NCBI GenBank assembly: GCA_963668315.1
Contig: OY764216.1
Location: 2,336,001-2,400,000, forward strand
Source: Spirochaetia bacterium
Lineage (GTDB): Bacteria > Spirochaetota > Spirochaetia > DSM-2461
Direction of reading: 5' to 3'
Length of the DNA: 64,000 nucleotides
Shown here one piece after another: positions 35,251 through 45,536 of the stretch (position 1 is its first letter; each line of letters starts with the position of its first letter). The translations under genes were made by a program, and so were the position numbers. The notes under the pieces are model-generated. The model had not been told where the DNA came from, searched no databases, and was given only the letters and a program-made list of their open reading frames with translations.

Positions 35251-38200
35251 ATGCGGTCATTTAACTGGGAGAACTCTCCCCTGGATAGAAATATTCTCCT
35301 GGAAGCGTCGGCGGGGACGGGGAAAACCTATACCCTGGAAAGGCTTGTGATGCGTCTGGTCACGGAGAGGGAAATCCCTCTGCCCCGGATTCTTGTGGTC
35401 ACGTTCACTAATATGGCCGCCCGGGAGATGCAGGAGCGTATCGGCCGTCTTCTGAGCCGGGAGAGGGAATCAGCCGAGGGCCGAAAGGGAGAGCTCCTGC
35501 GAAGGGCGGTGCGGGACTTTGACCGGGCGTCGGTCTTCACCATCCACGGTTTCTGCACCCGGGTTCTTCAGACCCTGCCCTTCGAATGCGGCCTGGCCCC
35601 CGGAACGGAAGTAGGGGGGGAGGACGAGCTGACCGGCCGCCTTGTTCAGGACTGGTTCCGTAAAAACGAGGAGAGGAACGATCCCTTTCTCCTTCAGGGA
35701 TACCGGGCGGCCTATGACCGGAACAGGGGATTCGCCCCCCTTCTGAAAAGCATAGAAAACCATATCGCCTCGGAAAAGCTGAACGGCAGCTGGAGCCTGA
35801 TCCCCGGGGAGGAAGCGAAGGAGTTCTGGGAGGAGCTCTGCCTCAAATGGGAGCAGTCTTCCCTCTGGGAGAGCGCCTGCCGGCTGGCCTCTTCCTGCCG
35901 CGGGCTGGGAGAGCCCGGACAAATGTCGGGGCTTCTGAAGAGGGACGGACTGGGCAAACGGCTCGGACCCAAAACGGAAGGACTCTTCTACAGTCAGCTG
36001 GCCGATCTGGATAAGGGGAAGGACTGCTACGATTTCTTTACCCTCCTGGACGGCAAGAATTCCACCTTCTTTACCCAGCTCTCCCAGGCCGCCGACGAGG
36101 ATTTCTCAGGAACGTCGGATTTTACGAAGGCCTTCTCCGCCTTCGCCCTCTCCCTTCCCGGCGAAGTCTGGGAGCAGAAAAGCGTCTCCTCCCTCCTCGC
36201 CGGCCTGGCCCTGCTCTTTGAATTCCAGTGCGCCGGAGAGATTATCGCCGAACGGAACAGGGAACGACGGGGCACGGGGCAGCTGACATTCAACGATCTT
36301 ATAGACATGGTTCACGGCCTTCTGGCGGGACCGGAGAGCAAACCGGCCCTTCTCGATGCCCTGACCCGCCGCTATCAGGTGCTGCTTGTGGATGAATTCC
36401 AGGATACGGACTTTCGGCAGTGGGAAATATTCTCCCTGCTCTTCGGAGGAAAGGGGAAAAACTTCTTTCTCATAGGAGATCCCAAGCAGTCCATCTACCG
36501 GTTCAGGGGAGCCGATCTGAATGTGTATCTCGATGTAAGAGATTCCCTTCCCGAAGAGAACCGTTACCGGCTGGACAATAATTTCCGTTCCCATCCCCTT
36601 CTTCTGGACGGCTTCAACAGACTCTTCGCCCCCCTCTTCGGGGAGGAAGGGCGGCCCGGTTTCATCGGCTATTCCCCCGTAGGGGCGGGGCGGGACGATA
36701 TAGGCCTGCTCCTGGAAGGGGAGGTTCCCGTTCCGCCTATTGATTTTCTCCGTCTGGAGGGGGAGCCGGCCAACCGGGAAGAGGCTGTCGAACTGTGGCT
36801 GAATGCCCAGGCCGACCATATTCTGGATCTGCTGAGCGGTCCGGGCCATACCCTGAACGGGAAGAGGGTCCGTCCCTCCCATATCGCCGTACTGCTGGAG
36901 AACAATAAGCAGTGCGTGCGGTTCCAGGAACTTCTTTCCGACCGGGCCGTTCCGGCGGTCATATTCCAGGAAAGGGACGTCTTCGACTCCCGGGAAGTCT
37001 CCCTACCCCTGATGTTCCTGGAAGCCATGATCGGCCGTGACCGGGGTGAGTCCCTGAAGCGGCTTCTCCTGTCCCCTCTGGTGGGACTTAATCCGGCGGA
37101 GATGCTTTTTCTGGAAGACCGGGGGTATCTGGACAGTCTGATCCTTCGTTTCCGCCTCTATCGGGAGAAAACAGACCGGGGCGATCTGATAGGCCAGTTT
37201 TACCGCTTCTGCCGTCTGGGAAAGGATATCGCCCGCTTCCTGGCCGAAGGGGACGCCATCGATCCGGACAGAGCCGCCTATCTGGGAGAGAATTTCCTCA
37301 TCCGCCTGATGAGGGACAAGGGCGGGGAGAGACTCTATACCAATCTGCGCCATATACTGGAAATCCTCCATACCGAACAGCTGCAGAAAAGGCTGAATAC
37401 GACGGAACTGCACCGGTTCTGCCGTTCCGAGCTCTACCATTCCCACGGGGACGAGACCTTTCAGGTGCGCCTGGACCGGGACGGGGAAGCGGTCAGGATT
37501 ATGACCCTGCACAAATCCAAGGGACTACAGTTCCCCCTGGTTTTTTTCGGAGGCGGTCTTTACAGTGAAGTCATCAACAGGAAAAGCTCCTTTTATACCT
37601 TCCACAGGGGGGAGGCCAACTGGTGCGATTATCTCAAGGGGCAGGAGAACGGCGCCCGGGCCCGCCGGGAGGAGTGGGAGGAGAAGAAGCGCCTCTATTA
37701 TGTAGGGCTTACCCGGGCGGAATCGAAACTTTTCCTGCCCCTGTTCGAGAACTGGGACAACAACTGGCTCTCCTGGTTTTACGACCAGGTCTCCTCTGCG
37801 GAGCTGGCAGAAACGGACCCCTTCGAAAAGAGCATCCTCTCCCTTCCCGGAGGAACGGCCCAGAAAAGCTGTGAAGCCCTGGCCGCCGCAGAGCCCGCTC
37901 TCTTCCGGATCGTCTCTCCCTTTCCCGGAGAGGGACGCTATACGTCCGCCGACAGATCCGAGCCTCTGGAAAAACCCGTGCTTCCCCCGCTGAAACTGAA
38001 TGAAAGATATCCTTCCCTCCTAAGCTTCTCCTCCCTGACGGATGAGGGTGAGAAGAGCGGGGATGCGGTCCATGACGAGGAGAGAGCCCAGGAAGCCGAT
38101 TATGATGAGGGCCGGGACGATCCCGAGGAGGGGGAGAAGGAAATTACCCCGGAAAACATTCCCGGCGGTACCGGTCTGGGAAACCTTGTTCATGCCCTTT

Positions 38201-38883
38201 TTGAAGAGATTGATTACAGGATGGCGGATACGGGGCTGAACGCTTTCGAAGAATCGGAAGAAGCCGACGCCTTCATCCGGGAAAAGGCCCTCTTCTATTT
38301 CAAGTCGGACTGGTTCCGCCAGTTCGGACGCACCGTCAAGCATATGGTCTGGAATACGCTGAACGCTCCTCTGCCCATGGAAGGTGAGGAGAAGAAAACC
38401 CTCTGCCTCAAGGATCTGCCTGCAGATAAACGCCTTCATGAGCTGGAATTTCTCATTAAAATGAGGCCCGGGGGGCAGGTAAGCCTCGATTCGTTTTTCC
38501 AGACCACATCCCGGGGGTATCTGAAGGGATTTATCGACCTGATTTTTTTCCATGAAGGACGCTTCTATATCGCCGACTGGAAAACGACCCGATGCGCAGC
38601 AAACGACCGCCATCCCTACGGTGAGGAGTCGGTCCGGGCCATTATGGATGACCACCGCTATCATCTGCAGTACTGGATATACACGGCTGCCTTTCATCTG
38701 TTCATGGTCCGAAGCCGTCCCGATTTCGATTACGACAGGGATTTCGGCGGCATCTTCTATTTCTTCAATCGGGGCATGAAACCCGATTCTCCGGGCAGGG
38801 GGGTCTTTTTCACCCGGCCGGGGAAAGAGGACCTGATCCGCTTTTACGAGAACTTTACCGAGGAGACCTGCCGTGAACTTTAA
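35251..38883 (+). CDS. recB: RecB (SF1 helicase plus PD-(D/E)xK nuclease)
   Basis: ASAGTGKT, VDEFQD, IGDPKQSIYRFRGA, TLHKSKGLQF and YVGLTRA; nuclease GFIDL..DWKT..YHLQ. Confidence 0.93.
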   Translation: MRSFNWENSPLDRNILLEASAGTGKTYTLERLVMRLVTEREIPLPRILVVTFTNMAAREMQERIGRLLSRERESAEGRKGELLRRAVRDFDRASVFTIHGFCTRVLQTLPFECGLAPGTEVGGEDELTGRLVQDWFRKNEERNDPFLLQGYRAAYDRNRGFAPLLKSIENHIASEKLNGSWSLIPGEEAKEFWEELCLKWEQSSLWESACRLASSCRGLGEPGQMSGLLKRDGLGKRLGPKTEGLFYSQLADLDKGKDCYDFFTLLDGKNSTFFTQLSQAADEDFSGTSDFTKAFSAFALSLPGEVWEQKSVSSLLAGLALLFEFQCAGEIIAERNRERRGTGQLTFNDLIDMVHGLLAGPESKPALLDALTRRYQVLLVDEFQDTDFRQWEIFSLLFGGKGKNFFLIGDPKQSIYRFRGADLNVYLDVRDSLPEENRYRLDNNFRSHPLLLDGFNRLFAPLFGEEGRPGFIGYSPVGAGRDDIGLLLEGEVPVPPIDFLRLEGEPANREEAVELWLNAQADHILDLLSGPGHTLNGKRVRPSHIAVLLENNKQCVRFQELLSDRAVPAVIFQERDVFDSREVSLPLMFLEAMIGRDRGESLKRLLLSPLVGLNPAEMLFLEDRGYLDSLILRFRLYREKTDRGDLIGQFYRFCRLGKDIARFLAEGDAIDPDRAAYLGENFLIRLMRDKGGERLYTNLRHILEILHTEQLQKRLNTTELHRFCRSELYHSHGDETFQVRLDRDGEAVRIMTLHKSKGLQFPLVFFGGGLYSEVINRKSSFYTFHRGEANWCDYLKGQENGARARREEWEEKKRLYYVGLTRAESKLFLPLFENWDNNWLSWFYDQVSSAELAETDPFEKSILSLPGGTAQKSCEALAAAEPALFRIVSPFPGEGRYTSADRSEPLEKPVLPPLKLNERYPSLLSFSSLTDEGEKSGDAVHDEERAQEADYDEGRDDPEEGEKEITPENIPGGTGLGNLVHALFEEIDYRMADTGLNAFEESEEADAFIREKALFYFKSDWFRQFGRTVKHMVWNTLNAPLPMEGEEKKTLCLKDLPADKRLHELEFLIKMRPGGQVSLDSFFQTTSRGYLKGFIDLIFFHEGRFYIADWKTTRCAANDRHPYGEESVRAIMDDHRYHLQYWIYTAAFHLFMVRSRPDFDYDRDFGGIFYFFNRGMKPDSPGRGVFFTRPGKEDLIRFYENFTEETCREL

Positions 38884-40555
38884 GGCTCTGTATAATCCCG
38901 CCCGGGAGGAGGGTGCCGAGTGGTACCAGATTTTTCTCGCCGAAAGGCTGGCCGGAGAAGCCGGAGGGGAAGGGGAGCTCTTCTTTTTCCTCCTCTCCCT
39001 GTTCAAGGAGAATGAATCGGGCCATCTGAGAATCGAACTGAAGGAGGAGGAGGGGGAACTGCTCTCCCGGTATTCTTCCTTCTTCCGCTCTTCCCTGTCT
39101 CCCTTTGTCATTACGGAGGACGGCCGTTTCCTCTATACAAAACGAAGAAAAGCTCAGGAGGACCGTTTCATCGAACTGCTGAACGCCCTGCTTTCCCGCC
39201 GGCCGGAGCCTCTTGTTTCCGATCTTGACCGATTTTGGGACCAGGCGTCCGAAGGGATAGAGCCCCCTTTGACTCCCGAGGTGATGAACGGCTGCCGGCA
39301 GGTCAACGGCAGGGCTTTCTATATCATCACCGGCGGGCCCGGAACGGGAAAGACCACCGCTCTTTCCGGAATCATCCGCGTTCTGAACCGGGCGTCGGAG
39401 CTGGCCGGCAGACCGGCTCCGAGAATGGCTCTGGCCGCTCCCACGGGAAGGGCCGCCAAAAGGATGGAACAGAGCCTGGGTGCCCGGGGAATCGCCGGGA
39501 CGGCCAGAACCCTCCACAAGCTTCTGGGGATCTCCTTTGACAAGGGCACTCCCCGGTTCGACCGGGAGAATCCGCTGCCCGCCGACCTCATCGTTGTGGA
39601 CGAGGCTTCCATGATAGACCTCCGCATGATGACTCTGCTGTTCGACGCCCTGCCTCCCGGGGGGCATCTCCTTCTGGTGGGCGACAAGGATCAGCTTCCC
39701 TCCGTGGAGGCGGGGGCTCTCTTTTCTGACTTTCTCTACCGCTCCGAAGAACCGGGGCACAGAATGGGCGACCGGATTCTCATGCTCCGCAACGTCTACC
39801 GCTCTCACCGGGATATTATCACCCTGGCCGGCCATATTATCGAGGGAAGGAAGGAAGACGCTCTCGCTTTTCTTAAGAATGAGGCGGGGGGCGATATGGT
39901 ACAGTACCGGCACCTGCCGGAGAAAGCGGAAAGCCTTTACCGGGAGATCACGGCCTTCTACCGGAGCGGTCAGCCCCGGCAGACCGACGGTTTCCCCTGG
40001 CCTGTGAGCCGCTGGGAAGAGGGCAGGAAAGAGCTTGACCGATGGTTTGAATTCTATAACGAGAGAATCATTCTCTGCCCGTCGAGAAAAGGTCTTATGG
40101 GGGTGGAAAGGCTGAACAGGGAGATCCGGGACCGTCTCTTTTCCCGTTCCCTTCACGGGATTCCCCTCATGATGACAAGCAATGACTACGAACTCGACCT
40201 CTATAACGGAGACAGGGGTATTCTGTTTCTCCTCGCGGGAGAGCCCCATGTCTTCTTCGCCGACGGGGAGAATTACCGCCACATACCCCTTGCCTATCTG
40301 GAGGAGTGGGAATACAGCTGGGTGCAGACCATCCACAAAAGCCAGGGGTCCGAGTTCCGGGAAGTCTCCGTTATTCTGCCCGAGGGGGCCGAAAGGCTGC
40401 TCTCCCGGGAAATCCTCTATACCGCGTTAACCCGGGCGAAAGAGAAGGTTTCCCTTTACAGCAGCGATGAAACGGTGAAACTCTGCATCGGCAGAGGAGT
40501 CTACCGGAGCTCACGGATCAAAGAAGTTCTTTCAGCTGATCCTTCGCCTGCCTGA
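38873..40555 (+). CDS. recD: RecD (SF1B helicase)
   Basis: TGGPGTGKTT, APTGRAA, VDEASM, GDKDQLPSV, TIHKSQGSEF and YTALTRA; overlaps recB by 11 nt. Confidence 0.93.
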   Translation: MNFKALYNPAREEGAEWYQIFLAERLAGEAGGEGELFFFLLSLFKENESGHLRIELKEEEGELLSRYSSFFRSSLSPFVITEDGRFLYTKRRKAQEDRFIELLNALLSRRPEPLVSDLDRFWDQASEGIEPPLTPEVMNGCRQVNGRAFYIITGGPGTGKTTALSGIIRVLNRASELAGRPAPRMALAAPTGRAAKRMEQSLGARGIAGTARTLHKLLGISFDKGTPRFDRENPLPADLIVVDEASMIDLRMMTLLFDALPPGGHLLLVGDKDQLPSVEAGALFSDFLYRSEEPGHRMGDRILMLRNVYRSHRDIITLAGHIIEGRKEDALAFLKNEAGGDMVQYRHLPEKAESLYREITAFYRSGQPRQTDGFPWPVSRWEEGRKELDRWFEFYNERIILCPSRKGLMGVERLNREIRDRLFSRSLHGIPLMMTSNDYELDLYNGDRGILFLLAGEPHVFFADGENYRHIPLAYLEEWEYSWVQTIHKSQGSEFREVSVILPEGAERLLSREILYTALTRAKEKVSLYSSDETVKLCIGRGVYRSSRIKEVLSADPSPA

Positions 40556-41096
40556 CGACTTCGTTATACTGGCCGTCCATGGCGGCCTGCTGGTTCTGGA
40601 GAATGTTCATGAACTCCGGATCCTGTTCGGGCCTTAACCGGATATCTTGACCTGTCTGCTCTCTCAGCTGGGCTTCCTTGCGGCGCAGCTGCGGCTCAAG
40701 CTGGGCAGCCAGAGACTCCATGAGCTGTTCCTTGGAATCCAGGTACTGGGCAAAGAAATTCTTCAGCTGACCGAAAAGGGATGTGAGCATCTCCTGTTTG
40801 TCCGGCGTATCCATGAGCCGGGAAAATCCTTCCTCAAGGCGTGTCAGTCCCGCCAGCTCCTCATTTACACGGGGAAGCTTCAGGTTCAAGAGGAGCGTCT
40901 CTATCAGAACCGAACGGAAATGCTCTTTCTCGTCATTTCCCTCCAGGGCCAGGGGGCAGTCTTCCCCGCTCAGAAAACGGGCAGCCTGCTTTTTCGCTTC
41001 CTTCGCCGCTTCCGCCCGGTGCACGGCGCCTCTGTCCGCTTCGACGTTGGCGGTTTTTTCCATGGCCAGCTCCAGGGCCGATTTGATTTTTGACAT
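40518..41096 (-). CDS. Hypothetical all-helical protein
   Basis: SD GAGGGAG; starts IKSALELAMEKT; coiled-coil character; overlaps the recD 3' end. Confidence 0.75.
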   Translation of the reverse strand: MSKIKSALELAMEKTANVEADRGAVHRAEAAKEAKKQAARFLSGEDCPLALEGNDEKEHFRSVLIETLLLNLKLPRVNEELAGLTRLEEGFSRLMDTPDKQEMLTSLFGQLKNFFAQYLDSKEQLMESLAAQLEPQLRRKEAQLREQTGQDIRLRPEQDPEFMNILQNQQAAMDGQYNEVVRQAKDQLKELL

Positions 41097-41127
41097 GCTA
41101 CAGATTCTCCCTCTTAATATATCGGAT

Positions 41128-42078
41128 CTAAAGGCACTTCTTGAGCCTGTAGATCAGCCGCCCCTCAAAGGATTCCCCCTCCTCCAGGTAGGGATAAAGG
41201 GAATCGGGAATAAGGGAACGAACTTCCTGACTGATAACCAACTCGTCCCGGCTCTCCTTGCGGCAGGCCATATGGAAGAGTGTATTAATGGAATCGGAAA
41301 CGATGCTGCCCGTCTCGCCCCGTTTTCTGAAAACGGTGGAGCCCAGATGGAGGGCCAGGCGGAATGTCGTTTGTACTTCGTAATCGCTGAAACGGCTGAT
41401 CCTTCTGTTCAGGTAGCACTCCATGGCCGCTTCCATGGCATAGAAATTCTGACCGTTGAAGGGAAACAGATAGACCCCTCCCCAGCCGTTCCAGAGCCAC
41501 TGATAGCCGTACCAGGCGTCCATATGCTCGTTCAGCCACTCCATGAACTCCCGGTTGAACCGTTCCGCCCCTTCCTGCCCCAGGATCTCCTGGACACGCA
41601 TCATATCGTCGAGGCCTGCGTAAAGCATGGCGAAGACATACTCCTCGCCCTCTTCTATCCCGTCCCAGTCTACTCCGGAATAGGGAACGGAGCTGTCCAG
41701 GTCTTCATTTATATAACGCCTGTCAATAGGATTAAGACGCTGAGCCTGTTCGAGCCTTTCCCGGCTGATGCCTTTCTCCAGAAGCTGGGCGCTGATGTAA
41801 TCCACCGCTCCGTAATGAAAAAAGTAGGCCGGATCTTCCGTGGGGGCCAGTCCCTCCACAACGGCGAAGCGCAGGTCGTTTCTGCTGCTGAGGTAGGAGA
41901 AGTGCTGATTCAGGGCCTCGTGGCTGTGACCTTCCCTGTCCAGATAGATCACGGCGCCCCTGACCTGACGGCAGATCTCCCTCAAGTTGTCGGGATTATG
42001 AAATTCCAGCGGTTCGTAGCCGCTCTCCATGAAGCATTCTCTTATCGGCTCCCTGTCTGTGAACACCAGATATTTCAT
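41128..42078 (-). CDS. Atypical receiver domain plus degenerate class III cyclase-like domain
   Basis: REC-like YLVFTD, VIYLD and GAVDYI; cyclase-like FRLALHLG, SDSIN and LVISQEV; metal Asp residues absent. Confidence 0.65.
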   Translation of the reverse strand: MKYLVFTDREPIRECFMESGYEPLEFHNPDNLREICRQVRGAVIYLDREGHSHEALNQHFSYLSSRNDLRFAVVEGLAPTEDPAYFFHYGAVDYISAQLLEKGISRERLEQAQRLNPIDRRYINEDLDSSVPYSGVDWDGIEEGEEYVFAMLYAGLDDMMRVQEILGQEGAERFNREFMEWLNEHMDAWYGYQWLWNGWGGVYLFPFNGQNFYAMEAAMECYLNRRISRFSDYEVQTTFRLALHLGSTVFRKRGETGSIVSDSINTLFHMACRKESRDELVISQEVRSLIPDSLYPYLEEGESFEGRLIYRLKKCL

Positions 42079-43004
42079 CGGCTGTTCTCCCAGCATAGGC
42101 GGTAATTGTAGAGCTGCTCCCGCCCGGAAAGGTTAATGCTCCTGAAACCGTCCAGAACGGGGGAGGGCAGGTGGCTGAATACTTCCTGGGAAATGGTGAT
42201 GCTGTCCGGATCGGTATGCTTCTCTTCCAGTCGGCAGGTGTCCTTGACGGTTTCGGCCTGTTTGATCTTCTCTTCGTTCTCGGTGAATTCAATGGGGCCT
42301 GTCCTGATAGCCTGGCGCAGCTGAATGGGGCGGTCGAGTCGGTTGGAGAAATGGTTGAACAGAAACAGACGGTGGAGAATCTCCATGGCGCTGTAAACGG
42401 CCTGTTCGTTGCGTGAGCCGTGATAGAAGGCGCAGATGGCTCCGTCCCCTTCCCAGCTCCAGACGCGGCCCAGCCGGAGATTGACGATTTCCGTCACGTC
42501 CTGTCTTATCAGGGCGAAGGTTTTTTCAATGATATCCTGATCATTCTGACGGACCATTTCGGTATTCTTCACCAGATCGAGCTTGAGGATGGAAAACGTG
42601 CAGGTTTGTCCCTCCCGAAGAACGCTCCAGTTTTTCGTAATGCTTCGGCGCGAGTCCTCCACGAAAGAGTCGGTATCTCTGTTATAGATGATTCCCTCTT
42701 CGGCCATCTGCTGGATGACATAGCCCAGGCGGGGAAAATGATATTTTCTGCCGTGGATTCCCTTGGTTTCCGCCTGCGCCATGAGGGATATCAGATCGGG
42801 AAAAAAGTTCCACTCCCTCATATCGCGGACAATCTGCCTGGCTCCGTCTCCGTGGGGCACGGCGTTATGGATGGAAACGCCCATGCGCTTGTGAAGATCA
42901 TACTCCGGCACAATGCGTCTCACAAGGTGAATCATCTCTTTCTGGGTCATGCTTCGGGATAAACCCTTGACCACATTGTTAAGCATGCTCTCTTTAACTC
43001 TCAT
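42075..43004 (-). CDS. Class III nucleotidyl cyclase-domain protein with helical N-terminal domain
   Basis: KLDLVKNT and WEGDG Asp residues 44 aa apart; LRQAIRTG, CRLEE and ITISQEV. Confidence 0.78.
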   Translation of the reverse strand: MRVKESMLNNVVKGLSRSMTQKEMIHLVRRIVPEYDLHKRMGVSIHNAVPHGDGARQIVRDMREWNFFPDLISLMAQAETKGIHGRKYHFPRLGYVIQQMAEEGIIYNRDTDSFVEDSRRSITKNWSVLREGQTCTFSILKLDLVKNTEMVRQNDQDIIEKTFALIRQDVTEIVNLRLGRVWSWEGDGAICAFYHGSRNEQAVYSAMEILHRLFLFNHFSNRLDRPIQLRQAIRTGPIEFTENEEKIKQAETVKDTCRLEEKHTDPDSITISQEVFSHLPSPVLDGFRSINLSGREQLYNYRLCWENSR

Positions 43005-43080
43005 AGGACTTGGACAAGATTATCATGAAAAGAAATGGTTGTCGAGCGACCGGAGAGGTCCCGGATATGAGAATTTCTCT

Positions 43081-43106
43081 TATATTCTTTTTTCAAATGC
43101 CGAAAA
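43081..43106 (+). promoter_or_regulatory. Putative sigma28 promoter of the flgN operon
   Basis: TATA-N14-GCCGAAAA. Confidence 0.5.
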
Positions 43107-43127
43107 TAGTAGGGAAGGAGTACACAA

Positions 43128-43637
43128 ATGGATGATACCGTATCGAAATGGCAGAAATTAAAGTGCTATATGGAAACGGAAAAGATTTTATTAAATAGTT
43201 TCTCTGAAAAGAATAAAGTCATTAGAACCCAGGTGCGTACCATGGACTGGCCCGTGTTGGAAATATTACTGAAAGAGCTGGATGATTTATCCTGCCAGAT
43301 TGAAGAAACAGACCGGCGCCGCCATCAGATCTATAAAAAAATCCTGAAAAAAGTAGAGAAATCGGAAAATTTTACCTTTTTTGACAACACCGCATCCCTG
43401 CCGGCGGAACTGCGTGAAAACCTCCGCCGTCTCCACGGAGAGCTGAAGATAGTTTCCGATCAGATAAAAATCGAGAGCCGGGTCACTTCCATCTATGTGG
43501 AAGCGAGAACGCGGGCCTTGAAAGACATGCTGGGGGAACTCATCCCCGAGACGAAAAATGTGTTTTACAGTCCGTCGGGACAGCTATTCAAAGGATCGAC
43601 CGGAACCAGTTCGCTGCTGGTCAACCGGAGTTTGTAA
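43128..43637 (+). CDS. flgN: Flagellar export chaperone FlgN-like
   Basis: Helical ~170 aa directly upstream of flgK; C-terminal Y..G..LLVN pattern. Confidence 0.7.
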   Translation: MDDTVSKWQKLKCYMETEKILLNSFSEKNKVIRTQVRTMDWPVLEILLKELDDLSCQIEETDRRRHQIYKKILKKVEKSENFTFFDNTASLPAELRENLRRLHGELKIVSDQIKIESRVTSIYVEARTRALKDMLGELIPETKNVFYSPSGQLFKGSTGTSSLLVNRSL

Positions 43638-43655
43638 GGGCAGAGGAGGCTTGTA

Positions 43656-45536
43656 ATGAAATCCACCTTTATGGGAATCGAACTGGGAAAACGGGGCATC
43701 ATGGCCAATTCCCAGGCGCTGGATACGGCGGGACATAACATCTCCAACGCCAACACCGAAGGATACAGCCGGCAGAGGATTAAGCTGGGATCCACCGATC
43801 CCCTCTATATGCCCCAGCTGAACCGGGCGGAAACTCCCGGCCAGATCGGCCAGGGCGTGGACGTGGTCAGCGTGGAGCGGGTCAGGGATGATCTGCTTCA
43901 GACCCGCATTGTGTCCTCGGGAGACAACAAGGGCTACTGGAACACCCGCTCCGACTATCTCCTTCAGGTCGAGCAGATTTACAACGAACCGAACGACACC
44001 TCGGTGAGAACCCTCATGGATAAATTCTGGGAAGGGTGGCAGGAACTGTCCATCCATCCCGATGACCAGGCGGCGCGGAGGCAGGTGGCCCGGAGGGGGG
44101 AAACCCTCATCGAGGGCATCAACAACCGTTACAACAGCCTCAAGGAAGTCAGGTCCATGCTGGATGACGATGTGGCCGTCTCCGTGGGTGAGGTCAACTC
44201 CATCCTTTCGAATATAAGGGAATTGAACGAGCAGATCGTCAAGGTCGAGGCACTGGGCGACAACCCCAACGATCTCTACGACAAGCGGGATCTTTTGACC
44301 GAGCAGCTGTCCGATTACATGAAAATAACCGTGGAAAATAAACGGGACCCCGATGAATTTCAGATTCATACCGGAGGACGGGAGCTGATTCAGGGAAAAA
44401 AGGTCAACTATCTTGCCACCGAGCCGAATCCGGATAACGAAAGCTATCTGGATATCACCTGGCAGGGGAGCGAGGAACGGGTTGTACTGTATGGCGGCAA
44501 ACTCCAGTCCCTTGTGGAACTGCGGGACGGCGATCTGCGGGGCGAAATCCAGAATCTGGATATGATGACGGTGAATTTCACCGATATGGTGAACGGCATT
44601 CACCGCCAGGCCTGGAACGGGAATAACGAAACGGGAGTGGATTTCTTTACCGAATACCCCTTTATCAATAACGTGGGGGGCAACTACGACCGGAACGGCG
44701 ACGGGGAGGTCGACTCCTCCTGGGTTTACCGCTTCACCGGCGCCCATGAACTCAATCCCCAGCAGCAGACGGGGCTGGAGGGAACCATCACGGTCAATGG
44801 CGCTTCGGGCAATGTGGACATTCCCTACTACCCCTCCGATACGGTGAGCGACATCATGGAGCGGATCAATAATTCGTCCTCCGAAGTAAAGGCCATGCTC
44901 GACTTCAACGGGCGCCTTGTCATGAAAGCCTCACCGGCCGGTCAGATAGGCAATCCCGACTTTGTGATCCGCCATCTGGAGGATTCGGGACAGTTCCTGG
45001 CCGGCTACGCGGGCATTCTGGAGAACACCGGGCCCGACGGCGCCTACGACTGGAATCAGGCCGATGCGGTCCTGGCCCTTCAGGGGGGGGGGACGGATTT
45101 CTCCGTGGCGCCCCTGACCCATCCTTCGGGCTGGCTGCAGATAAACGAGACCCTTGTTACCGATCCCAACGCCATCGCTGTGGGACTGGGAGAGAACGGC
45201 AGACCCGCCGCCGCCGGTGACGGATCGGCCGCCCTGGCCATCGCCGACCTCAGGCAGGAGATGGTGATGGTGGGGCCACAGCGCAGCTTTGACGACTATT
45301 TCGCCGAGACTGTCGCCAGTATCGGCCTCAGGGGCGAACAGGCGGAACTGACAAGCGAGACGGAAAATCTTGCCTGGAAGGAACTGAAGGATCTGCAGCA
45401 ATCCATAAGCGGCGTGAACCTGGATGAGGAATTTTCCGACATGATTAAATTCCAGCACGGTTTCAATGCCGTCTCCCGCTATATTTCCACGGTGGATGAT
45501 ATGCTGGATACCATTATCAACAGGATGGGGGTGTAA
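43656..45536 (+). CDS. flgK: Hook-associated protein 1
   Basis: GHNISNANTEGYSRQR, GQGV and SGVNLDEE. Confidence 0.96.
   Translation: MKSTFMGIELGKRGIMANSQALDTAGHNISNANTEGYSRQRIKLGSTDPLYMPQLNRAETPGQIGQGVDVVSVERVRDDLLQTRIVSSGDNKGYWNTRSDYLLQVEQIYNEPNDTSVRTLMDKFWEGWQELSIHPDDQAARRQVARRGETLIEGINNRYNSLKEVRSMLDDDVAVSVGEVNSILSNIRELNEQIVKVEALGDNPNDLYDKRDLLTEQLSDYMKITVENKRDPDEFQIHTGGRELIQGKKVNYLATEPNPDNESYLDITWQGSEERVVLYGGKLQSLVELRDGDLRGEIQNLDMMTVNFTDMVNGIHRQAWNGNNETGVDFFTEYPFINNVGGNYDRNGDGEVDSSWVYRFTGAHELNPQQQTGLEGTITVNGASGNVDIPYYPSDTVSDIMERINNSSSEVKAMLDFNGRLVMKASPAGQIGNPDFVIRHLEDSGQFLAGYAGILENTGPDGAYDWNQADAVLALQGGGTDFSVAPLTHPSGWLQINETLVTDPNAIAVGLGENGRPAAAGDGSAALAIADLRQEMVMVGPQRSFDDYFAETVASIGLRGEQAELTSETENLAWKELKDLQQSISGVNLDEEFSDMIKFQHGFNAVSRYISTVDDMLDTIINRMGV

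Follow-up and report, generated by a model that had tools for sequence, protein, structure and literature searches.

A translationally coupled pair of spirochaete genes that may encode a heterodimeric class III-type nucleotide cyclase

RESULTS

Two overlapping genes with cyclase-homology domains

The window analysed in the present study, i.e. the whole stretch of 64000 nt from the forward strand of the genome of a Spirochaetia bacterium (GenBank assembly GCA_963668315.1, contig OY764216.1, positions 2336001–2400000), contains on its minus strand two adjacent genes, designated A and B, which may together encode a single nucleotide cyclase of the class III type (all coordinates for A and B refer to the minus strand of the window). 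Gene A (42075–43004) encodes a protein of 309 amino acids, in which an N-terminal domain without assignment (residues 1–125; 42630–43004), mostly helical with a β-hairpin in the secondary structure of its AlphaFold2 model, is followed by a cyclase-homology domain (residues 126–309; 42078–42629) that would contribute the metal- and phosphate-binding half of an active site. Gene B (41128–42078) encodes 316 amino acids, with a receiver-like domain (residues 1–115; 41734–42078) and a second cyclase-homology domain (residues 133–316; 41131–41682) that would contribute the Asn/His half. A first-pass annotation, made from the letters of the DNA alone, had described two ORFs (open reading frames) of the cyclase fold joined by an ATGA, and this was confirmed by the sequence, by AlphaFold2 and by fold matches: the TGA stop codon of A and the ATG start codon of B share the ATGA at 42075–42078, and the two genes are translationally coupled. 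The ATG at 42078 was taken as the start of B instead of an upstream ATG at 42096, which is also in the ORF list, because homologues all begin with M-x-x-L-V-F at this point; the closest of them (97% identity) has a length of 316 amino acids. A Shine–Dalgarno-like site for B, GGGAGA at 42086–42091, lies 7 nt ahead of this start, within the codons for the conserved Trp305-Glu306 of A.

Neither protein is assigned by Pfam or NCBIfam (in Pfam there were no matches for either at E values up to 1, the cyclase model PF00211 included), and at E values up to 0.01 PF00211 matches 3/52 members of the A family and 0/56 of the B family. Initial searches gave 11 homologues for A and 13 for B, from spirochaetes wherever they were labelled, and AlphaFold2 models built on alignments of these homologues had mean pLDDT (predicted local distance difference test) values of 87 for A and 79 for B. 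Residues 130–308 of A have the class III cyclase fold, with the best match to Cya2 (2w01; Z 21.6, rmsd (root mean square deviation) 2.4, 176 residues aligned) and further matches to CyaB, CyaC, the C1 domain in 1cs4 (Z 20.4) and the cUMP (cyclic UMP) synthase 7r65 (Z 19.4); Foldseek aligned A with 1wc1 at an E value of 1.4e-9. The cyclase fold proposed for B is also present, as residues 142–316 match the same cyclases, best of all CyaC (1wc1; Z 18.4, rmsd 2.4, 168 aligned), and also 7r65 (Z 16.2), and Foldseek aligned B with 4wpa (E 2.4e-8). The family profiles reach the solved cyclase 3mr7 (E 5.9e-7 for A and 0.0014 for B), and hhalign shows the cyclase domains of A and B to be homologues (probability 99.9, E 9.4e-33). 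For the N-terminal domain of A there was no Pfam match and no usable ESM Atlas match, and the VIA-align rows span residues 109–306 only; the domain is common to the unpaired relatives described below as well, and we regard its fold as one without an assignment rather than as an established new fold.

Conservation of the A/B pair in Spirochaetota

A search of 401 sampled Spirochaetota genomes with the A profile gave matches in 133 of them, and as these include weak matches to other cyclases the loci were examined singly. Our set of 123 A-type loci consists of the best A-profile matches listed in this sample, counting that of the window and dropping four duplicate loci. The gene pair is kept well beyond the window: B lies directly downstream of A on the same strand at 96 of the 123 A-type loci, so the pairing is far beyond chance, and 25 further A-type genes are unpaired and two are undecidable because of contig ends. 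Two of the 96 pairs were assigned by hand, namely L047 and L056, where B is cut by a run of N. The pairs come from 86 genomes with 19 family codes, and 12 genomes have both a pair and an unpaired gene. By A-profile match, whole families carry the pair in the majority of their genomes, with one or two copies each, e.g. in 15/17 and in 11/11 genomes. In a scan of one genome per species (185579 species), whose sensitivity is limited to two peptide patterns, 56 B-type loci were found, all with spirochaete titles. Against a representative library the A profile matched 4680 proteins at E values up to 0.001, and 135 at up to 1e-30; none among the best 150 of the 4680 matches is a fused A–B protein, i.e. 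a protein of approx. 620 amino acids with two matched stretches.

At each of the best 30 loci the gene after A is a B gene in the same orientation, one of these loci being cut by a contig end. The junction between the genes is 0 nt at 17 of these loci, an ATGA overlap at four, 1–3 nt at four and 13–53 nt at five. In most of the 30 junctions compared a TGGGA string stands just 5′ of the A stop codon, TGG GAR being the codons for the conserved Trp-Glu of A. Judging from the sequence, the C-terminal codons of A thus appear to double as the ribosome-binding site of B.

In a FastTree phylogeny of 214 cyclase domains, the paired A domains fall on one side of a branch with a support of 89, and the paired B domains and the unpaired genes are each nearly so grouped, each needing two changes. 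Because of this grouping, the paired A, paired B and unpaired states are best explained by a few ancient events rather than by many independent ones. When the two halves of the cyclase domain were scored separately, the unpaired genes were closer to A in the first half, which holds the Asp residues, and had about equal scores with A and B in the second half, which holds the Asn and His. These half-domain scores fit a process of subfunctionalization, since each paralogue would keep the half that is still used.

Division of the catalytic residues between A and B

The positions of the catalytic residues of A were fixed by HMM (hidden Markov model) alignment of the A family to 3mr7 and were carried to B by the A/B profile–profile alignment. 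In A, the metal-binding residues are Asp143 (codon GAT, 42576–42578) and Asp187 (42444–42446), the latter within the motif WxWEGDG, and the phosphate-binding Arg of strand β4 is Arg230 (42315–42317); Lys254 (42243–42245), placed by both alignments, occupies the position of the catalytic Asn, and Arg258 that of the transition-state Arg. In B, Gly155 and Trp199 stand at the two Asp positions, and Arg240, Asn265 (AAT, 41284–41286) and His269 (CAT, 41272–41274) correspond to Arg230, Lys254 and Arg258 of A. The two Asp residues of class III cyclases are found in A and are missing from B, and the pair of Asn and Arg is found together in neither domain, as A has Lys254 and an unconserved Arg258 and B has Asn265 but His269. 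The first-pass annotation had read B in this same way, with both Asp residues lost, the Asn kept and the Arg changed to His, and the alignment bears it out. For A, it was right about both Asp residues and about the Lys at the Asn position, but the transition-state Arg that it credited to A, although present, is poorly kept in the family (Arg in 7/38 members). It had also noted correctly that neither protein has the canonical Lys or Glu at the base-specifying position, four residues before the second Asp: this residue is Ser183 in A and Leu195 in B.

This division is conserved almost without exception. Asp143, Asp187 and Arg230 are present in 52/52 aligned A sequences and in all 123 A-type genes, and position 254 of A is Lys in 31/38 members and Lys or Arg in most. 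Asn265 of B is present in 56/56 aligned sequences and in 93/93 paired B genes, His269 is present in 89 of those 93, and no paired B gene has both metal-binding Asp residues. An Asn at position 254 was found in only 6/96 paired A genes, and in these six position 258 is never His, Lys or Arg. In the unpaired genes, the two Asp residues and the β4 Arg are accompanied in all 25 by Asn at 254 and by His (21 genes), Lys (three) or Arg (one) at 258, so that their catalytic set is complete and bears the N-x-x-x-H signature also seen in B. Outside the clade of the window, most B proteins retain acidic residues beside the missing Asp positions (Glu at 155, and Asp or Glu at 198), where the proteins of the window's clade have Gly in both places.

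A natural A::B chimera

One of the genes counted as unpaired, L094:1601–2572 (minus strand; genome G331, contig C6), is an A::B chimera in a single intact reading frame. Its residues 21–208 are 93–100% identical with the A protein of a congener and its residues 209–324 are 88–100% identical with the B protein of that congener, the join lying at a shared Gly-Gly-Leu motif just past the second Asp. At the DNA level it corresponds to a 960-nt deletion relative to the congener, with a 9-nt overlap at the junction, and because its flanks are 88–92% identical with those of the congener, the genome differs from the latter and is not a copy of it. The chimera, a single case from a metagenome-assembled genome, restores the Asp, Asp, Arg, Asn and His residues in one frame and, as far as sequence can tell, shows that the first half of the cyclase domain of A and the second half of that of B fit as one domain. 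We also considered whether the unpaired genes as a group are ancient A::B chimeras, and rejected this because only L094 has chimeric scores (first half 108/45, second half 28/154); in the other 24, A outscores B over the first half and the two are about level over the second.

These residue patterns bear on the possibility that two degenerate cyclase domains make up a nucleotide-binding sensor or scaffold with no catalytic function. Such a role would agree with the lack of a complete site in either subunit and with the failure of the Pfam cyclase model to reach either protein, and both the change from Arg to His and the loss of the base-specifying residues are departures from active canonical enzymes. 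However, drift would be expected in degenerate domains, and instead all of the residue types for one full site are kept within the pair with near-total conservation, and the L094 chimera reunites exactly these residues in an intact frame. A sensor or scaffold of this kind is, in our view, unlikely.

Prediction of the A–B complex

The association of A and B was examined with a complex predictor, using the cyclase domains only (A 125–309 and B 130–316, with the N-terminal domains cut off) and our own alignments. The A–B pair had a median score of 0.87 in three runs (0.88, 0.87 and 0.87), and the best of three controls scored 0.00. This mark is reached by 116/157 solved complexes and by 2/215 mismatched pairs, counts that are rough because our own alignments were used, and since dimers of cyclase domains have already been solved, the high score could partly reflect likeness to known structures. 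The three runs share at least 97% of their contacts, with a partner pLDDT of at least 87. The modelled contacts join helix 203–219 and residues 282–286 and 301–308 of A to helix 212–227 and residues 291–299 and 313–316 of B, and helix 203–219 of A runs antiparallel to helix 212–227 of B, so that the helices that follow strand β3 are packed back to back. In addition, we determined inter-protein covariation over 92 pairs (Neff, the effective number of sequences, 70), in which the top-ranked pairs resemble phylogenetic noise. The mean z at the modelled contacts was 0.67 (the 97.5th percentile of random sets of 25 being 0.40), that of the cross-pairs of the inferred active site was 0.41 over 130 pairs, and pseudo-site pairs were about 0.

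The position of B in this model, on helix 203–219 and the C-terminus of A and away from the catalytic loops, is what would be expected if A were the enzyme, acting as a homodimer in which Lys254 replaces the Asn, and B were a regulatory pseudo-cyclase that binds through a non-catalytic helix interface and tunes A by means of its receiver-like domain. Regulators derived from enzymes are common, and the conserved basic residue at position 254 in most A proteins would also agree with such a role for A. Nevertheless, this explanation does not account for the near-invariant Asn265 and His269 of B, which are exactly the catalytic positions that A has lost, nor for the Asn with His, Lys or Arg in every one of the unpaired relatives, and position 258 of A is unconserved. 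We consider it fairly unlikely, and prefer a heterodimer in which both proteins contribute to catalysis.

The receiver-like domain of B

Residues 1–114 of B match the receiver fold (2qxy; Z 13.4, rmsd 2.2, 108 residues aligned), and a wider profile of the B family reaches the receiver domain of NtrC1 (1zy2) with an E value of 3e-5, although the Pfam receiver model PF00072 matches only 1/56 B-family members. Asp47 of B (codon GAC, 41938–41940), in the sequence VIYLD, aligns with the phospho-acceptor Asp of NtrC1, and Asp is found here in 42/42 family members. In the window, Glu75 stands at the receiver Thr/Ser position at the end of β4 and Ala97 at the Lys position at the end of β5. Position 75 is Asp in 38/42 family members, so that the Thr/Ser position is acidic throughout the family, and position 97 is Lys in 20, Arg in eight and Pro in eight of the 42. 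The acceptor Asp and the missing Lys noted in the first-pass annotation are thus both correct for the window, but the loss of the Lys is not family-wide. As the conserved Thr and Lys are replaced, the receiver-like domain of the window may not be phosphorylation-competent, and the proposal that this domain gates the cyclase is doubtful for the window.

Genomic neighbourhood

Immediately downstream of the pair, 31 nt 3′ of B and on the same strand, lies a DUF6657 gene (40518–41096, minus strand; PF20362, E 2.2e-16), a family not mentioned in any paper of the literature that we searched. It is possibly co-transcribed with A and B, and no terminator-like site was found between it and B in a scan of positions 40300–43700. 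The scan as a whole, for promoters and terminators, gave nothing usable (three promoter-like sites against 1.9 expected and five terminator-like sites against 4.0 expected). Upstream of A, and divergent from it, are a FlgN-like gene (a weak match, E 0.0075), followed by FlgK, a flagellin-family gene in the FlgL position and FliW.

The genes next to the pair differ from one lineage to another. When the three flanking genes per side were compared at 20 diverse loci (Pfam E values up to 1e-5), no neighbour recurred; the genes found were for sugar kinases, chemoreceptors, glutamine synthetase, nucleoside diphosphate kinase, alanine racemase, a chaperonin and others, with one cNMP (cyclic nucleoside monophosphate)-binding protein. 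When the DUF6657, FlgN-like and FlgK proteins of the window were compared by tblastn with 182 loci, they were found only in the three closest relatives of the window (L132–L134). The arrangement of B and the DUF6657 gene is kept in the same three loci and nowhere else among the 182. We rejected a flagellar link and the DUF6657 gene alike as parts of the module, as their recurrence is confined to the window and these relatives, and the divergence from a flgN operon described in the first-pass annotation holds for these four loci but is missing from the others examined. Because no neighbour recurs and the DUF6657 and FlgN-like genes recur only in the three closest relatives, we conclude that the A/B pair is a self-contained module and that the flagellar genes beside it are peculiar to the lineage of the window.

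In this context, we also considered a defence function, in which the pair would be a Pycsar-type anti-phage module whose cyclic pyrimidine triggers an effector. The best named sequence models for A are the PADLOC models of PycC, the cyclase of such modules (E 6.2e-8, covering residues 136–224 only), and they also match unpaired relatives (1.5e-10 and 3e-11) as well as relatives fused to TIR, caspase or protease domains; moreover, the N-Y-A-A-H of the unpaired genes corresponds to N-Y-A-A-K in BcPycC. B was not matched by the PADLOC PycC models. In contrast with these likenesses, there is no linked effector: the 20 loci contain no TIR domain and no recurring partner, and the cNMP-binding protein mentioned above stands at a single one of them. 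The wide presence of the pair within families fits a core signalling gene and not a patchy defence island, and PycC proteins, as described in PMC11224242, are head-to-tail homodimers with two symmetric sites. Defence was rejected as the principal explanation, since the effector is absent both in the window and in the 20 diverse loci, and we regard it as very improbable.

Two further observations concern the surroundings of the pair. At 35251–40555 on the plus strand of the window is a gene for a 1210-residue UvrD-type helicase with a C-terminal PD-(D/E)XK nuclease domain, followed with an 11-nt overlap by one for a 560-residue RecD-like helicase, which look like a RecB/RecD-like or AddA-like pair; they converge on the DUF6657 gene, with a 38-nt overlap at its 3′ end. 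At other sites the genome encodes four canonical class III cyclase domains recognized by Pfam, in large open frames of 487–955 amino acids (L001–L004, on G000:C1 at 3047227–3047769, 4393724–4394260, 3175893–3176441 and 3737402–3738004 respectively), so the split pair is not the only cyclase of the organism.

DISCUSSION

Given the conserved split of the catalytic residues, the complete set in the unpaired relatives and the chimera that restores this set in one frame, we propose that A and B form an obligate heterodimeric class III-type nucleotide cyclase with a single composite active site, which arose by subfunctionalization within the spirochaetes, and we consider this probable, if with some reserve. 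In this scheme, a homodimeric ancestor resembling the present unpaired relatives would have given rise to the A/B pair. Within this heterodimer, binding of the metals and the triphosphate would fall to A, and B would position the ribose and stabilize the transition state, a sharing of tasks like that between the α and β subunits in soluble guanylate cyclase. The pseudo-symmetric counterpart of this site would be inactive or have a regulatory role, and the regulatory inputs would be the receiver-like domain of B and the N-terminal domain of A. An obligate heterodimer had already been suggested in the first-pass annotation, and the pairing, the residue split, the complete unpaired relatives, the chimera and the complex score all speak for it, but the modelled interface is not the canonical one.

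This last point is the first of several that weigh against our proposal. The interface predicted between A and B is a helix–helix one and not the head-to-tail arrangement of catalytic cyclase dimers, and the helix after β3 is peripheral in the structure of adenylyl cyclase with Gs. In the interface residues of soluble guanylate cyclase and adenylyl cyclase given in PMC6005667, the canonical head-to-tail interface adjoins the β2–β3 loops and the β4–β5 flap. The complex model would therefore support the association of A with B, and as its interface is not canonical, the composite active site is something that we infer. One possible reason for this interface is that normally hidden surfaces became accessible when the N-terminal domains were removed; others are that the proteins assemble into something larger than a dimer, or that B only regulates A, as in the explanation considered above. 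Covariation over 92 pairs was too weak to choose between the two interfaces. In B proteins outside the clade of the window, the second site may not be fully dead and may have a metal- or ligand-binding role. A His at the transition-state Arg position is unusual, the canonical base-specifying residues are missing from the pair, and we know of no enzyme activity for any member of the family, unpaired genes included. Finally, the contrast between paired and unpaired genes reflects a few evolutionary events and not 121 independent ones.

The heterodimer proposed here could be carried further, to a phylum-specific obligate heterodimer of a Pycsar-related N-x-x-x-H subtype that serves housekeeping signalling, makes a non-canonical and possibly pyrimidine product and consists of back-to-back A–B units that become catalytic only on head-to-tail pairing, i.e. 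an assembly-based switch. We put forward this fuller version as a doubtful one, with little expectation that all of its parts would hold together. The non-canonical nucleotide specificity raised in the first-pass annotation is likewise speculation, with one possible lead in the sequence, namely that the PycC models are the best named ones for A.

Bacterial class III cyclases are usually described as homodimers with two equivalent sites, and one-site heterodimers are regarded as a eukaryotic development. In the literature searched, which left most subscription journals outside, we found no description of the A/B pair or of two-gene heterodimeric bacterial class III cyclases, and an older review could mention such pairs. 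The A/B genes form a bacterial family, not covered by the Pfam cyclase model, in which this partition of roles has apparently evolved independently and become fixed in many spirochaete families. As three evolutionary states are extant (unpaired genes with the complete set, pairs that divide it and, in a single natural case, a chimera in which the two are fused again), the evolution of asymmetric active sites is directly testable with natural sequences. The pair also points to a putative uncharacterized second-messenger enzyme in a phylum whose cyclic-nucleotide signalling has been little studied.

From their sequences, the A/B family would belong to a Pycsar-related branch of the class III cyclases. 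The fold of the PycC enzymes (for example BcPycC, 7r65, and EaPycC, 8jsf) matches both A and B, as given above for 7r65, and PycC and the A/B family alike have a residue other than Arg four positions after the catalytic Asn, Lys in BcPycC and His here. A Pycsar-related offshoot that makes cGMP (cyclic GMP) has reportedly been found, according to the abstract of a 2026 preprint. Since such an offshoot is reported and the base-specifying residues of PycC differ between clades (PMC11224242), this relationship does not point to a particular substrate for A and B. The PycC proteins of that source are homodimers encoded beside a TIR or membrane effector (PMC11224242), whereas the catalytic residues of A and B are split over two genes with no linked effector.

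Beyond the full-length spirochaete forms, the same cyclase subtype (Asp, Asp and Arg, with I-N-F-V-x-H-L-E) is present in proteins of other architectures, which the PADLOC PycC models also match. The subtype is found at the N-terminus of proteins with TIR and viperin-like radical-SAM domains or with caspase, TPR and sulfatase-modifying-factor domains, and at the N-terminus of others with FHA and trypsin-like protease domains or with an Lrp/AsnC ligand-binding domain. The multi-domain carriers (P0131, P0133, P0137, P0118 and P0157, in the last of which the cyclase follows a metallophosphoesterase domain) resemble systems of conflict or defence into which a cyclase has been built. Closer to B in design are the single-chain receiver–cyclase proteins P0145 and P0115, which share its architecture and its N-x-x-x-H subtype. 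In contrast with B, which has lost both Asp residues and, in the window, also the receiver Thr and Lys, these two proteins keep both Asp residues together with the Arg, Asn and His, and a protein of this kind is a plausible model for the ancestor of B.

Two separately encoded subunits also make up the heterodimeric class III rhodopsin–guanylyl cyclases of chytrids (RGC/NeoR), as reported in PMC8815786 and PMC10622942; unlike A and B, these are eukaryotic, membrane-bound and equipped with rhodopsin sensors. According to a 2022 review (PMC9552081), the class III enzymes of bacteria are homodimers, with both monomers taking an equal part in two active centres, and the pseudo-heterodimer originated in eukaryotes. 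The closest parallels to the present pair are soluble guanylate cyclase α/β and the C1/C2 domains of mammalian adenylyl cyclase. In comparison with these, A and B are bacterial, of apparently independent origin and closer to each other and to the unpaired spirochaete genes than to any cyclase recognized by Pfam; they are encoded by two separate, translationally coupled genes, have His in place of Arg and no Lys/Asp or Glu/Cys base-specifying pair, and carry different regulatory domains, namely the receiver-like domain and the unassigned helical domain. Nonetheless, the division is the same in all three systems, with Asp, Asp and Arg on one side, the Asn and the residue at the Arg position on the other, and one competent site, putative for A and B, beside one pseudo-site. 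In soluble guanylate cyclase, according to a review (PMC6005667), the α subunit provides Asp486, Asp530 and Arg574 and the β subunit Asn548 and Arg552, and the match of the A/B division to this one points to the same kind of arrangement rather than to common descent.

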